From Escherichia coli (GTDB lineage Bacteria > Pseudomonadota > Gammaproteobacteria > Enterobacterales > Enterobacteriaceae), in the NCBI RefSeq assembly GCF_045037415.1, contig NZ_CP173438.1: 64,000 nt of DNA; one strand, 5' to 3'. The notes under the pieces are model-generated. The model saw only the letters and a list, made by a program, of their open reading frames with translations, made no database searches and had not been told where the DNA came from. Each line of letters begins with the position of its first letter. The first letter of the stretch is position 1. Made by a program: the position numbers and the translations under genes. Below are positions 3,456-9,091 of this stretch, piece by piece.

Positions 3456-5069
3456 TCAATGCTTCACAATATACATAGTCCGACTGTACGCCACATCTTC
3501 AGGGTTGTTAATGGGATAACCTTTCAGCCACGGCTTGATTAATCGTCCATTGGTATATTGATAAATTGGTGCAATCGGTGCTTGCTCCATGAGGATTTTT
3601 TCTGCCGCGTTGTAATCGGCATTACGCGCTTTAACGGTATTTTCCGTCGATGCCTGGGCCAGAACTTTGTCATATGCCGGATTGTTAAAGCGTGAAATAT
3701 TCCCGGAATGCGTTGACGTTAATAATGTCAGGAAAGTGGAGGGTTCATTATAATCCCCTACCCACGAGGCGCGGATAACATCAAAATTGCCGGTATTACG
3801 GCTATCGATATAGGTTTTCCATTCCTGGTTTTGCAATTTAACATCTACGCCCAGGTTCTTTTTCCACATCGATGCTACAGCAATCGCAATTTTTTGATGG
3901 TTTTCTGAAGTGTTATACAAAAGCGTCAGCTTCAGCGGTTTTTGCGGACCATAACCAGCGGCGCTCAACAAAGTTTTTGCCTGCGCATTCAGTTCTTCCT
4001 GACTCATTTGTTCAAACGGCGAAGGTTCCGGCGTAAATCCCGCGGTAACATCTGGTGTAAAATGCCACGCTGGCTTTTCGCCCGTCCCCAACACTTTTTC
4101 GGTCATCAGGCGGCGATCTATCGTCATACTTAATGCCAGGCGAACGCGCTGATCTGCCGTCGGCCCTTTTTGCGTGTTAAACGCATAATAATAGGTCCCG
4201 AGCTGCGGCGGCGTATAAACCTGCCCCGGAATATCCTTCAACAGCTTCTGATACATATTTTTCGGGAAGGATTCGGTGATATCAATATCCCCCGCGAGAT
4301 AACGCTTAGTGGCTGCGGATTCCTGATTAATTGGCAGGAAGGTCACTTTTTGCAGTACCGTTTTGGCGTTATCCCAATAATGGGTATTCGGCACTACGAC
4401 CAGTTTTTCATTGACTACGCGCTCTTTAAGAACATAAGCGCCATTGCCGATCAGATTTCCGGGTTTCGTCCACTCTTTACTGCTTTCTACGTTGGCTTTT
4501 TGCACCGGGAAGAAGGCAAAGTTAGCGGTTAAATTCACAAACCACGGCAACGGTTTATCAAGCTGGATTTTCAAAGTATGGGCATCAACTGCGGTAACGC
4601 CAAGCTGGTCAGGCGTGGCTTTACCATCAATAATCGCCTGTGCGTTGTTGATTCCCGCCAGCGCGGCAAACCATGCAAATGGCGAAAGCGTTTTCGGGTC
4701 CACCAGACGTTGCCAGCTGTAGACAAAATCTTGCGCCGTTACCGGTGTGCCATCCGCCCATTTTGCGTTATCGCGCAGGGTAAAAGTCCAGATACGGTTG
4801 TCATTACTTTTCCACTGAGTCGCAACGCCGGGGACAATCTCCCCTTTCTCGTTCTGATTCACCAGTCCTTCAAACAGATCGCGAATGACCTGAATCTCCG
4901 GCAGGCCCACGGCTTTAGCGGGATCCAGCGACGCTGGCTCATCTTTAATGTGGCGCACCAGCTCCTGCTTCTCTGCCAGTACTGTGCCGCTCGGAACTTC
5001 AGCAGCATACGAAAGAGAAATGCTGCTGACCAACAGCGCACAACACGTGACTGAAACAGAGTGCTTCAT
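3456..5069 (-). CDS. mppA: Periplasmic murein tripeptide-binding protein MppA (OppA paralog)
   Basis: ORF 3456..5090; start placed at MKHSVSVTCCALL (signal peptide) giving 537 aa; SBP family 5. Confidence 0.9.
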   Translation of the reverse strand: MKHSVSVTCCALLVSSISLSYAAEVPSGTVLAEKQELVRHIKDEPASLDPAKAVGLPEIQVIRDLFEGLVNQNEKGEIVPGVATQWKSNDNRIWTFTLRDNAKWADGTPVTAQDFVYSWQRLVDPKTLSPFAWFAALAGINNAQAIIDGKATPDQLGVTAVDAHTLKIQLDKPLPWFVNLTANFAFFPVQKANVESSKEWTKPGNLIGNGAYVLKERVVNEKLVVVPNTHYWDNAKTVLQKVTFLPINQESAATKRYLAGDIDITESFPKNMYQKLLKDIPGQVYTPPQLGTYYYAFNTQKGPTADQRVRLALSMTIDRRLMTEKVLGTGEKPAWHFTPDVTAGFTPEPSPFEQMSQEELNAQAKTLLSAAGYGPQKPLKLTLLYNTSENHQKIAIAVASMWKKNLGVDVKLQNQEWKTYIDSRNTGNFDVIRASWVGDYNEPSTFLTLLTSTHSGNISRFNNPAYDKVLAQASTENTVKARNADYNAAEKILMEQAPIAPIYQYTNGRLIKPWLKGYPINNPEDVAYSRTMYIVKH

Positions 5070-5125
5070 AAGTTTCCCTCTAACCGACATTAAAATTGAT
5101 GCGTAATTATTTGTTTCGCCTTAAA

Positions 5126-5161
5126 GAAATGCAAACAACTTCCATCAAAAAAGTGACAAAG
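5126..5161 (+). repeat. Copy A of a ~36-bp conserved element (AATGCAAACAACTTCC..CAAAAAAGTGA), upstream of mppA
   Basis: Near-identical to 8237..8273 (about 33 of 38 positions by eye). Confidence 0.7.
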
Positions 5162-5405
5162 GAAGCATCAAATGTTTTAAGTATCAATATATCAAATCAG
5201 ATTTAGTGTAAATAATAGTCTCCAAAATGCGGTAAAGCACATAGAACTCCGAACACTACGTTCGGGCTTCGCACATTCAAACCCGTTTTCGGTATCATAA
5301 TCAGCATCTGTCGCCATTGTGCGAAGAATAAAAAATAACCAAAACGTTGAAAGGAACTGAGAATACGTTAAGAGAAGAATTAAATTAATGTATCAGCAAG
5401 TAGTG

Positions 5406-6305
5406 CTAAACAGCACCTTTATACTTCAGCCTATCTATAAATAATGAGAATGCCGAGCCAGCATGTCGACGGTGTGGATAGTACAGGTGATAACCGGGTA
5501 AATCTGGTGTGAATTTATCCAAAACACGTATCAGTTTTTTTTCTTTAATAGCCCGCTCCACCTGATCATAAGGTAGATACGCCAATCCATGCCCATCAAT
5601 TGCAGCATCAATGATCAGATCTATCGTATTCAGTAAAAGCTGACCTTCCATGCGAACACGAACTTCACGTCCACCGCGTATTAATCTCCAGCGATTTGCT
5701 GTACCCGATGTGGGAAGATACAAATTAATTGCCTGATGATCTATTAATTGTGACACTGACGTTGGAGCACTTCGACGAGAAAAATAATCCGGTGAGCCAA
5801 CAATAGCCATTGGTATGTCTGGCCCGATTCGAATGGCGATCATATCTTTATCCATCTCCCCACCCAGACGGACGCCTGCATCAAAACGTTCAGAAACGAC
5901 ATCGGTCAAACCATAATCAATGGTAAGCTGAATATCAATTTCAGGATGCGATTTCAGGAATGTGCGCATGGCTGGTAACAATATCGTTTTTGCTGCATGT
6001 TCTACAGTAGTAATACGTATTGTCCCGGATGGGCGGTTCTGCAGATCGCTCAGGGATGTCAGGGCAGAATCTATGTCATGCAACATAGGGCCAAGAACAG
6101 ACAAAAGATGCTCGCCCGCTTCAGTGGGTACAACGCTGCGCGTGGTTCGCGTCAGAAGCCGCAATCCCAATCGTTCTTCTATACGGCGCACTATCTGGCT
6201 TAAAGCTGACTGCGCCATGCTCAGGCGGGCTGCTGCGCGAGTGAAGCTACGCTCCTCTGCAACAACGACAAACGCCATCAGATCAGCGATTTCTTCACGC
6301 TTCAT
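5406..6305 (-). CDS. ycjZ: LysR-family transcriptional regulator YcjZ
   Basis: 299-aa ORF; N-terminal LysR HTH (FTRAAARLSMAQSALSQ) and substrate-binding domain. Confidence 0.85.
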   Translation of the reverse strand: MKREEIADLMAFVVVAEERSFTRAAARLSMAQSALSQIVRRIEERLGLRLLTRTTRSVVPTEAGEHLLSVLGPMLHDIDSALTSLSDLQNRPSGTIRITTVEHAAKTILLPAMRTFLKSHPEIDIQLTIDYGLTDVVSERFDAGVRLGGEMDKDMIAIRIGPDIPMAIVGSPDYFSRRSAPTSVSQLIDHQAINLYLPTSGTANRWRLIRGGREVRVRMEGQLLLNTIDLIIDAAIDGHGLAYLPYDQVERAIKEKKLIRVLDKFTPDLPGYHLYYPHRRHAGSAFSLFIDRLKYKGAV

Positions 6306-6442
6306 TCAGTATCTCCATACAATCTATTAATCATTTAAATGATAGGTCTAATCATGATTTTGGGTCTAATCAACTTAATGATCAATATCTATAGTGATAT
6401 CACCAACCGTTAAAACGAACCGACAACTCCATGAGGAACGGA

Positions 6443-7363
6443 ATGATGAATAATAAAGTCAGCTTCACTAACAGCAATAATCCAACCATCTCTTTGTCTG
6501 CAGTGATCTATTTCCCTCCAAAATTTGATGAAACCCGTCAGTATCCGGCAATTGTGGTATCTCACCCAGGTGGGGGCGTTAAAGAGCAAACGGCCGGAAC
6601 CTATGCCGAAAAACTGGCGGAAAAAGGATTTGTCACTATTGCTTATGACGCATCTTATCAAGGTGAAAGCGGCGGCGAGCCGCGTCAGTTAGAAAACCCA
6701 TACATTCGTACTGAAGACGTCAGTGCCGTGATTGATTACCTGACAACGCTTTCTTATGTCGACAATACCCGAATTGGTGCGATGGGAATTTGTGCCGGTG
6801 CAGGATATACAGCCAATGCTGCAATTCAGGATCGCCGCATCAAGGCCATCGGTACTGTTAGTGCGGTCAATATTGGTTCGATGTTCCGTAATGGTTGGGA
6901 AAACAATGTGAAATCTATTGATGCCCTACCATACGTTGACGCGGGTTCAAACGCCCGAACCAGCGATATTAGCAGCGGAGAATACGCCACTATGCCACTG
7001 GCACCAATGAAGGAGTCCGATGCGCCGAACGAAGAACTGCGTCAGGCCTGGGAATATTACCACACCCCTCGCGCGCAGTATCCAACAGCACCGGGTTACG
7101 CTACTTTGCGCAGCCTTAACCAGATTATTACCTATGATGCTTACCATATGGCGGAAGTGTACCTGACTCAGCCGATACAGATTGTGGCGGGCAGCCTGGC
7201 TGGGAGCAAATGGATGAGTGACGACCTGTACGATCGAGCATCAAGCCAGGATAAACGCTATCACATTGTTGAAGGCGCAAACCATATGGATCTTTATGAT
7301 GGCAAAGTCTATGTGGCTGAAGTAATTTCAGTATTAGCTCCGTTCTTTGAGGAAACTCTGTAA
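6443..7363 (+). CDS. ycjY: Alpha/beta-hydrolase family protein YcjY
   Basis: ORF 6431..7363; start placed at second/third ATG after an AGGA; GxCxG nucleophile-elbow-like motif (MGICAGAG). Confidence 0.8.
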   Translation: MMNNKVSFTNSNNPTISLSAVIYFPPKFDETRQYPAIVVSHPGGGVKEQTAGTYAEKLAEKGFVTIAYDASYQGESGGEPRQLENPYIRTEDVSAVIDYLTTLSYVDNTRIGAMGICAGAGYTANAAIQDRRIKAIGTVSAVNIGSMFRNGWENNVKSIDALPYVDAGSNARTSDISSGEYATMPLAPMKESDAPNEELRQAWEYYHTPRAQYPTAPGYATLRSLNQIITYDAYHMAEVYLTQPIQIVAGSLAGSKWMSDDLYDRASSQDKRYHIVEGANHMDLYDGKVYVAEVISVLAPFFEETL

Positions 7364-7433
7364 TGAAACATATTCAAATCCGTAATAGTGATATGGCCTG
7401 GCATATTGCTGCCAATAATCTGGGAAAAGTTTC

Positions 7434-8072
7434 ATGAAAAATGTACTGATTCTTGGTGCTGGCGGTCAGATAGCCCGCCATGTGATTAATCAACTGGCAG
7501 ATAAACAAACCATTAAACAAACTTTATTTGCCCGTCAGCCAGCAAAAATCCACAAACCCTATCCAACTAATAGCAAGATTATTATGGGGGATGTACTGAA
7601 TCATGCAGCACTGAAGCAGGCCATGCAGGGACAGGATGTTGTGTATGCCAACCTTACGGGGGAAGATTTAGATATTCAGGCAAATTCAGTGATCGCTGCG
7701 ATGAAAGCCTGTGATGTTAAACGTCTGATCTTTGTTCTTTCCCTCGGTATTTATGATGAAGTTCCAGGAAAATTTGGCGAATGGAATAATGCAGTTATTG
7801 GTGAACCCCTAAAACCATTCCGCAGGGCTGCGGATGCAATTGAGGCTTCTGGACTGGAATATACAATTCTTCGCCCTGCCTGGCTGACTGATGAAGATAT
7901 TATTGATTATGAGCTTACCTCACGCAATGAACCATTCAAAGGTACGATCGTATCACGTAAGAGTGTCGCAGCATTAATCACAGATATCATCGATAAACCT
8001 GAGAAACACATTGGTGAGAATATAGGCATCAATCAACCCGGGACTGATGGTGATAAGCCCTTCTTCATGTAA
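7434..8072 (+). CDS. NAD(P)-binding NmrA/SDR-like oxidoreductase (ymjC-like, apparently intact)
   Basis: 212-aa ORF; N-terminal Rossmann motif VLILGAGGQIARHV. Confidence 0.75.
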   Translation: MKNVLILGAGGQIARHVINQLADKQTIKQTLFARQPAKIHKPYPTNSKIIMGDVLNHAALKQAMQGQDVVYANLTGEDLDIQANSVIAAMKACDVKRLIFVLSLGIYDEVPGKFGEWNNAVIGEPLKPFRRAADAIEASGLEYTILRPAWLTDEDIIDYELTSRNEPFKGTIVSRKSVAALITDIIDKPEKHIGENIGINQPGTDGDKPFFM

Positions 8073-8090
8073 ATCAATTATATAGCTACC

Positions 8091-8117
8091 ATCGTACTGT
8101 ACTATGTGCAGTACGAT
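8091..8117 (+). terminator. Hairpin downstream of the ymjC-like gene
   Basis: ATCGTACTG / CAGTACGAT 9-bp inverted repeat followed by an AT-rich tract. Confidence 0.4.
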
Positions 8118-8236
8118 TTATTAAACTTATTAAGGTGAACTGATCAATCAGATGCGATTAACATGTGTAGAACCAGTAAGAATAAAATACGCCATGTATA
8201 TAACATTACGACAATTCTAATATCTGCACATCAATG

Positions 8237-8273
8237 AAAATGCAAACAACTTCCGGCAAAAAAGTGATACAAG
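8237..8273 (+). repeat. Copy B of the ~36-bp conserved element, upstream of mpaA
   Basis: Near-identical to 5126..5161. Confidence 0.7.
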
Positions 8274-8362
8274 ATCGATGACATAGCGTTGAAGAAAAGG
8301 ATTTGATAATCCGCAAAATTTGCACAACACTGCCTGTAATACTTCCTGAACCAGAGACGATC

Positions 8363-9091
8363 ATGACCGTAACTCGCCCACGCGCCGAACGCGGCGCATT
8401 TCCGCCCGGAACAGAACATTACGGACGTTCATTATTGGGCGCGCCGTTAATCTGGTTTCCGGCCCCTGCAGCCAGTCACGAAAGTGGTTTGATTCTGGCT
8501 GGCACTCACGGTGATGAAAACTCTTCGATCGTCACGCTCTCCTGTGCTCTGCGGACTTTGACACCTTCTTTGCGCCGCCATCATGTGGTGCTGTGTGTGA
8601 ATCCTGACGGCTGCCAGTTAGGGTTACGGGCCAATGCTAATGGTGTGGATTTAAACCGAAACTTTCCGGCAGCGAACTGGAAGGAAGGTGAAACAGTTTA
8701 TCGCTGGAACAGCGCCGCTGAAGAACGTGATGTTGTATTACTGACAGGTGACAAACCTGGCTCCGAACCTGAAACCCAGGCGCTGTGCCAGCTTATACAC
8801 CGCATTCAACCTGCCTGGGTGGTCTCATTCCACGATCCGCTGGCCTGTATTGAAGATCCCAGACACAGCGAATTAGGTGAATGGCTGGCCCAGGCGTTTG
8901 AATTGCCTCTGGTAACCAGCGTCGGTTATGAAACGCCTGGCTCTTTCGGCAGTTGGTGTGCAGATCTCAACTTGCATTGCATCACCGCAGAGTTTCCACC
9001 CATCTCCTCCGACGAAGCCAGCGAAAAATATCTCTTTGCGATGGCAAACTTGCTGCGCTGGCATCCTAAAGATGCAATTCGCCCGTCGTGA
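8363..9091 (+). CDS. mpaA: Murein peptide amidase A (gamma-D-Glu-meso-DAP amidase, M14 family)
   Basis: ORF 8303..9091; start placed at MTVTRPRAERG giving 242 aa; zinc-carboxypeptidase-like HGDE motif. Confidence 0.9.
   Translation: MTVTRPRAERGAFPPGTEHYGRSLLGAPLIWFPAPAASHESGLILAGTHGDENSSIVTLSCALRTLTPSLRRHHVVLCVNPDGCQLGLRANANGVDLNRNFPAANWKEGETVYRWNSAAEERDVVLLTGDKPGSEPETQALCQLIHRIQPAWVVSFHDPLACIEDPRHSELGEWLAQAFELPLVTSVGYETPGSFGSWCADLNLHCITAEFPPISSDEASEKYLFAMANLLRWHPKDAIRPS

Follow-up and report, generated by a model that had tools for sequence, protein, structure and literature searches.

Islets of foreign DNA bounded by direct repeats, whether these are target duplications or attL/attR sites, share a simple layout. 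Imperfect repeats of the target enclose the foreign DNA; an empty site has one copy, and a site that loses its insert returns to one copy. The target duplications of insertion sequences (IS) and transposons are usually 2–14 bp long. Here we describe a direct repeat of about 37 bp in a 64,000-nucleotide stretch of Escherichia coli DNA (contig NZ_CP173438.1, hereafter the window). One copy lies upstream of mppA, the gene for the murein tripeptide binding protein, and the other upstream of mpaA, the gene for the murein tripeptide amidase; between them stands the pgrR–ycjY–ymjC block. We consider it very probable that the repeat is a target duplication of the old mppA–mpaA spacer, made when a foreign cassette was inserted, and that the two copies permit precise loss of this cassette. 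The products of mppA and mpaA act in one pathway (PMC13204101). According to PMC5934670, the published regulon of PgrR (YcjZ) takes in ycjY-ymjDC-mpaA, and an operon model credited to Shimada, Yamazaki and Ishihama (2013) has transcription reading through from the ycjY promoter into mpaA.

The duplicated spacer element

A repeat search of the locus returned one direct-repeat family. Copy 1 (AAATGCAAACAACTTCCATCAAAAAAGTGACAAAGGA, positions 5127–5163) is on the mppA side and copy 2 (AAATGCAAACAACTTCCGGCAAAAAAGTGATACAAGA, positions 8238–8274) is on the mpaA side, both on the plus strand. They are identical at 32 of 37 positions, with identical runs of 17 nt and 11 nt. Copy 1 lies 58–94 bp 5′ of the mppA start codon (ATG at 5069, minus strand) and copy 2 lies 89–125 bp 5′ of that of mpaA (ATG at 8363). 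The original prediction, which had noticed a conserved element upstream of both genes by eye, gave these positions and distances correctly, its coordinates being off by 1–2 nt only. The 30-nt core of the repeat occurred at 2 places only in the window when up to 3 mismatches were allowed, against an expectation of 0.00 from 100 shuffles. A 45-nt query matched 5,418 of 5,426 complete E. coli genomes; the median number of matching places per genome was 2, all of them at this locus. It had no further copy outside the mppA–mpaA spacer in any locus retrieved and was not found in viral contigs. These counts rule out a common dispersed repeat, the finding that the original prediction had named as fatal to itself. 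A structured RNA was likewise dropped as a candidate, since the Rfam scan had no match near either copy; its sole match was to RAGATH-10, below threshold and within pgrR. The element is not palindromic. Positions 5060–8370 of the window are 100% identical to E. coli strain SK1144.

The organization of the locus in other species was surveyed by a scan for MpaA in one genome per species, which yielded 80 loci. In about 70 of them mppA (3456–5069 in the window, minus strand) and mpaA (8363–9091, plus strand) are divergent neighbours, and the spacer of about 180–182 bp that separates them contains a single element. This arrangement is found in E. albertii, E. whittamii and three further Escherichia lineages, and in Citrobacter, Enterobacter, Leclercia, Lelliottia, Kluyvera, Raoultella, Kosakonia, Pluralibacter and others. 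None of the about 70 outgroup species has the pgrR–ycjY–ymjC block in this spacer. Copy 2 has the same sequence as the one element found in relatives without the block. One such relative is Escherichia sp. MOD1-EC7003, whose block-free spacer reads almost base for base as the left flank of the window, copy 2 and the right flank. Within E. coli itself, the block is missing and a single element is present in 174 of the 5,426 complete genomes. This total leaves aside an E-value-filtered count of junctions, which took in a few block-bearing genomes; an example is LD22-1, whose copy 1 matches 58 nt. Since mppA and mpaA are adjacent and divergent in the outgroups, with one element between them, it is directly supported that the pgrR–ycjY–ymjC block is an insertion into the ancestral divergent spacer. 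The second of two alternatives in the original prediction, that the block had been inserted into a divergent mppA–mpaA promoter region, is therefore borne out by the outgroups, by the 174 E. coli genomes with adjacent genes and by the profile search described below.

The boundaries of the duplication were defined with an nhmmer profile built from 74 single-copy spacers and searched against the window. Profile positions 2–100 matched 5071–5165, ending in copy 1, and profile positions 60–182 matched 8236–8359, starting at copy 2. The two matches overlap solely in the repeat. The repeat is thus spacer positions ~58–94 in duplicate, about 37 bp that are now present twice. When the block ends beyond the repeat were compared with the 74 spacers, their Smith-Waterman scores fell within the shuffle distribution. 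Homology past the 37 bp, as expected if a circle carrying a foreign spacer had entered by a Campbell-type insertion, was rejected because the nhmmer matches end at the repeat. A likeness of the copy 1 flank to a Pluralibacter spacer, seen by eye, failed in both the nhmmer and the Smith-Waterman comparisons.

The cassette, its loss and the divergence of the copies

The two copies are separated by 3.07 kb of other DNA (5164–8237). Its genes are pgrR/ycjZ, encoding a LysR regulator (5406–6305, minus strand), ycjY, encoding an alpha/beta hydrolase (6443–7363, plus strand), and ymjC, an intact SDR gene (7434–8072, plus strand). The guanine–cytosine (GC) content of the block is 43.9%, compared to 50.1% for the window. 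YcjY is 82–89% identical to proteins of Pluralibacter, Rhizobium, Sphingobium, Burkholderia, Mesorhizobium and many metagenomic contigs; its best NCBIfam match, to a quorum-quenching lactonase family, is weak and below cutoff. A LysR gene divergent from a YcjY-like hydrolase and a second, paralogous hydrolase was seen in 3 sampled contexts, with different neighbours each time. The element was absent beside the cassette homologues in the sampled contexts (loci L083–L089), which are few. The distant relatives of YcjY, the synteny in unrelated contexts and the low GC content establish, at the level of sequence comparison, that the cassette is foreign and horizontally acquired. As a separate observation, the identity of YcjY across classes is unusually high, which implies wide horizontal spread.

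The cassette has itself been trimmed. A four-gene form, pgrR–hydrolase–hydrolase–SDR, is kept in some E. coli strains such as TW10828 (locus L095, 1684–4192), and the second hydrolase also stands between ycjY and ymjC in Pluralibacter and metagenomic relatives. This hydrolase is lost in the window, where a 70-bp remnant is left at 7364–7433. K-12 is without a further 665 bp (window 7573–8237; ~4013 in K-12 locus L002) and its ymjC is a pseudogene. The 665-bp deletion stops 0–1 nt from the left edge of copy 2, with CCAACTAATA before the junction and AAATGCAAAC after it. This endpoint may reflect coincidence, weak microhomology (AATAGCAAG versus AAATGCAAA) or a fragile boundary. Two hairpins lie in the outer parts of the block: a terminator-like one downstream of pgrR, between that gene and copy 1 (5249–5265, minus strand), and one 3′ of the ymjC stop codon and upstream of copy 2, with 12-nt arms and a 3-nt loop (8091–8117, plus strand). 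RefSeq annotates a 75-nt pseudogene fragment of epoxyqueuosine reductase (QueH) in the gap between copy 1 and pgrR, at about 5235–5310 in the window and at 475–549 and 532–606 in loci L095 and L096, respectively. It may be a relic of the context of the cassette in its donor.

Precise loss of the cassette has left its mark in E. coli. A chimeric element, AAATGCAAACAACTTCC-AT-CAAAAAAGTGA-TACAAGA, is present as an exact match in 18 of the 174 block-less genomes, and it combines the diagnostic AT of copy 1 with the diagnostic right end of copy 2. The chimera of CP131_Sichuan is flanked by 1,517 nt on the left and 1,500 nt on the right that match K-12 at 100% identity, while the window and K-12 differ by about 2% over the same stretches. 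Because the flanks of this chimera are those of K-12 and K-12 carries the block, CP131_Sichuan demonstrates that the block was deleted precisely, and recently, through a crossover within a run common to both copies. The same chimera is found in SCU-172 on a different flank haplotype, and there were therefore at least two deletion events. UTME-7 and about 8 similar block-less genomes differ strongly from all other Escherichia in the 90 bp that separate the element from mpaA (locus L001, 6098–6192). This stretch is partly Citrobacter-like (CACTGCGAATAACA), although the coding sequence around it is E. coli at about 98%, and it looks like a small imported patch.

The differences between the two copies are concentrated in copy 1. 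Its left 17 nt and CAAAAAAGTGA are native sequence, and its right half has drifted at the AT and at C..A.G. Across strains, the right halves of copy 1 form a series that leads to the native sequence shared with copy 2: …AT…GACAAAGGA in the window and K-12, …AT…GACACAGGA in TW10828, …AT…GATACAGGA in LD22-1 and …GG…GACACAGGG in Escherichia sp. E1V33, the native and copy 2 form being …GG…GATACAAGA. Because these variants grade into the native sequence, they fit a duplication that would have been near-perfect at first, with the promoter-distal half of copy 1 drifting later. The same series does not fit with a foreign att-like sequence that the cassette might have carried. The cores of the two copies still agree at 28 of 30 nucleotides in most E. 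coli. A TW10828-type copy 2 with 3 substitutions, which fall inside both cores, has an exact match in 54 genomes.

Predicted promoter content and possible regulation of the duplicated segment

A sigma-70 promoter of mppA is predicted at 5106–5134 on the minus strand from a consensus scan and conservation. Its −35 hexamer, TTGCAT (5134–5129), is inside copy 1 and is followed after a 17-nt spacer by the −10 hexamer AATAAT (5111–5106). The scan itself listed TTTGCA-18-AATAAT at 5135–5106, and its count of matches over the region was no higher than in shuffles, so that the match by itself is weak. A T-tract (the reverse complement of CAAAAAA, 5145–5150) lies about 10 bp upstream of the −35, where an UP element would be expected. 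Both the −10 region GTAATTATTTGTTTC and the −35 region GAAATGCAAA are conserved at 85–95% or more among the 74 spacers. Together with AAAGTGA/AAATTGA and a long mpaA-proximal block, they are the top conserved blocks of the spacer across the 74 species, and GAAATGCAAA and AAAGTGA/AAATTGA fall within the repeat. No mapped start site for mppA was found in the literature searched. After the insertion, mppA retains both predicted hexamers and about 30 bp beyond the −35 on the upstream side, and for mpaA the native upstream sequence is retained over the whole 125 bp.

The mpaA-proximal conserved block (8296–8335, plus strand), with the sequence GAAA..ATTTGATA-N9-TTTGCACAACACTGCC, lies outside the repeat and stayed beside mpaA after the insertion. 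In the form ATTTGATTA-N9-TTTGCACAACACTGCC it surpasses every other part of the spacer, the repeat included, in conservation across more than 15 genera (loci L003–L081). It contains candidate mpaA hexamers, TTGATA (8303–8308) and AACACT (8326–8331) separated by 17 nt, for which the consensus scan made no call. We regard the block as a candidate native mpaA promoter or operator. At its other end, mpaA overlaps the convergent ycjG by 26 bp (9066–9091).

The conservation within the repeat raises the possibility that both copies have been kept by selection as operators of one factor that co-regulates mppA and mpaA, which would be compatible with an origin by insertion. Single-copy spacers of different genera share the conserved sub-blocks GAAATGCAAA and AAAGTGA/AAATTGA, the cores of the two copies have stayed nearly identical in most E. 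coli, and the two genes belong to one pathway. Against this, mean conservation of the element is barely above that of the remaining spacer (0.75 versus 0.69), and the conserved left sub-block is explained equally well as the mppA −35. The right half of copy 1 has drifted and the TW10828-type copy 2 is altered in both cores, which further weakens the case. A shared regulator site, the first alternative of the original prediction, is therefore no more than a candidate, and we think it unlikely to be the reason why two copies persist.

Several factors were considered for such a site. According to PMC5934670, the reported PgrR peak from systematic evolution of ligands by exponential enrichment (SELEX) is in the ycjY/ycjZ spacer and not at the repeat copies, and a PgrR operator at the element was rejected. 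A binding site for CRP was also rejected. Table 1 of PMC4287617 lists a CRP site from chromatin immunoprecipitation sequencing (ChIP-seq) under the label ‘ycjZ/mppA’ (CGTGAACCGGGTCACA). That sequence is missing from this spacer and is located in the abgA–abgR spacer of enterotoxigenic E. coli (ETEC) H10407 (locus L094, 3418–3433); the K-12 homologue label in the table appears to be wrong. No CRP-like pair of sites is found within the element. Readings of the element as a sigma-54, TyrR-box or PurR-box site, made by eye, were dropped for wrong spacing or a missing second half-site.

Origin of the duplication and comparison with known systems

We propose the following history. In the ancestor, mppA and mpaA were adjacent and divergent from a spacer of ~182 bp. 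A cassette consisting of the LysR gene pgrR, one or two alpha/beta hydrolase genes and an SDR gene would then have landed in this spacer in the E. coli lineage, and its insertion would have left ~37 bp of the spacer (~58–94) at both sides. Because the duplicated segment was left on both sides, mppA and mpaA each kept their full native upstream sequence. The promoter-distal half of copy 1 presumably drifted later. The repeats now act as short homology, so that a crossover removes the cassette and leaves one element, which is sometimes chimeric; such losses produce a presence/absence polymorphism in E. coli. As to how 37 bp came to be duplicated, our guess is an illegitimate insertion involving either a staggered break with fill-in or template switching.

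Several points weigh against this history. No mechanism known to make a 37-bp duplication was identified. No transposase, integrase or recombinase gene was found among the open reading frames (ORFs) within or next to the block, and no terminal inverted repeats that pair the block ends were found. That the duplicated segment holds the mppA −35 and the upstream T-tract is a promoter assignment drawn from consensus and conservation. The about 150 other block-less E. coli, IAI39 among them, have a purely copy-2-like element; they may never have had the block, or may have lost it when the crossover fell within the first 17 nt. Moreover, the block and both repeats are also carried by E1V33, a separate Escherichia species whose mppA and mpaA are 89.7% and 86% identical, respectively, to those of the window. 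The interior of its block is 97–98% identical to K-12 and shares the ymjC truncation (locus L005, ~6876), and the right-hand return to host-like sequence comes directly after copy 2. Next to copy 1, the outermost ~100 bp of the block diverge at roughly the level of the species, as do the flanks. Because the interior is so close to K-12 while the host genes diverge, the block has, as judged from these identities, crossed species boundaries through recombination, and the timing and direction of its spread are ambiguous.

A different account of the duplication is that the repeats are attL/attR-like sites and that the spacer is a dedicated landing site, with the recombinase that serves it encoded at another locus. 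The layout resembles that of att sites in its imperfect direct repeats around foreign DNA, single-copy empty site and precise excision. In addition, the K-12 ymjC truncation stops within 1 nt of the left edge of copy 2, and Salmonella arizonae and diarizonae have an unrelated cdtB islet in this spacer. However, the block has no integrase gene, and neither the cassette homologues in the few contexts sampled nor viral contigs have the element as an attP-like copy. The variants of copy 1 approach the native sequence and not a separate attP, and in the Salmonella islet the element is not duplicated and the mppA-proximal part of the spacer is replaced. We consider this account very doubtful. The broader proposal that the 37-bp segment serves recombination as a landing pad, at which cassettes enter and leave as units by machinery encoded elsewhere, is in our judgement just as improbable; if true, it would account for the clean duplication, the Salmonella islet, the transfer between species and the endpoint in K-12 ymjC. 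The islet of S. enterica subsp. arizonae and diarizonae is 3.1–3.4 kb long (locus L024, 3848–7000; locus L025, 3562–7000). It has a gene for cytolethal distending toxin B (NF011787, 378.9 bits) between two ORFs for lectin-like, cdtA/cdtC-like lipoproteins, and its conserved mppA-proximal blocks are replaced.

The last alternative is that the ancestor of Enterobacteriaceae already had the block with both repeats and that all other lineages lost the block by the kind of repeat-mediated deletion observed in E. coli. It is effectively refuted by the outgroup survey, as it would require dozens of independent losses in more than 15 genera with the block kept in none of the about 70 outgroup species, while the closest relatives of the cassette are at other loci and the copy 1 variants have the E. 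coli-specific GATAC variant of the element.

Insertion of the cassette explains the odd gene order of a well-studied E. coli locus: a foreign cassette, with hydrolase genes and the gene for PgrR, the regulator that takes its name from peptidoglycan recycling, split the ancestral mppA–mpaA unit. Since it did so, the control of PgrR over mpaA is probably a by-product of where the cassette landed and not of ancient design. The locus provides a natural example of a long target duplication that preserves both halves of a divergent promoter region. It also exemplifies a polymorphism in gene content driven by short repeats, with the block missing from about 3% of sequenced E. coli. CP131_Sichuan and K-12, block-less and block-bearing and otherwise identical, are ready controls for studying the roles of PgrR and YcjY. 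The repeat is an ordinary kind of genome scar. No paper describing the duplication or the insertion was found in the literature searched.

The locus can be set beside several known systems. Like REP/BIME and ERIC-type dispersed repeats, the element is a short non-coding repeat between genes; it differs from them in having 2 copies per genome at one locus, in not being palindromic and in having no Rfam match. The described PgrR regulon, with pgrR divergent from ycjY-ymjD-ymjC-mpaA, involves the same genes as here, and its published binding site, the ycjY/ycjZ spacer (PMC5934670), is distinct from the repeat. In comparison with transposon and IS target duplications, the ~37 bp here are far longer, and the block has neither a transposase gene nor terminal inverted repeats. 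The resemblance to islets bounded by direct repeats is closer. Even so, this insert carries none of the integrase, transposase and terminal inverted repeats of such islets, its target is a divergent promoter region instead of a tRNA gene, and the cassette occurs elsewhere, in the few contexts sampled, with no matching att-like copy. As for its loss, the locus resembles the deletions between short direct repeats that arise in E. coli by short-homology recombination or replication slippage: 2.4–4 kb are lost precisely, the crossover is inside an identical run of 11–16 nt, and a chimeric repeat is left. Here such deletions are observed not in a genetic assay but among sequenced genomes, as a natural polymorphism.

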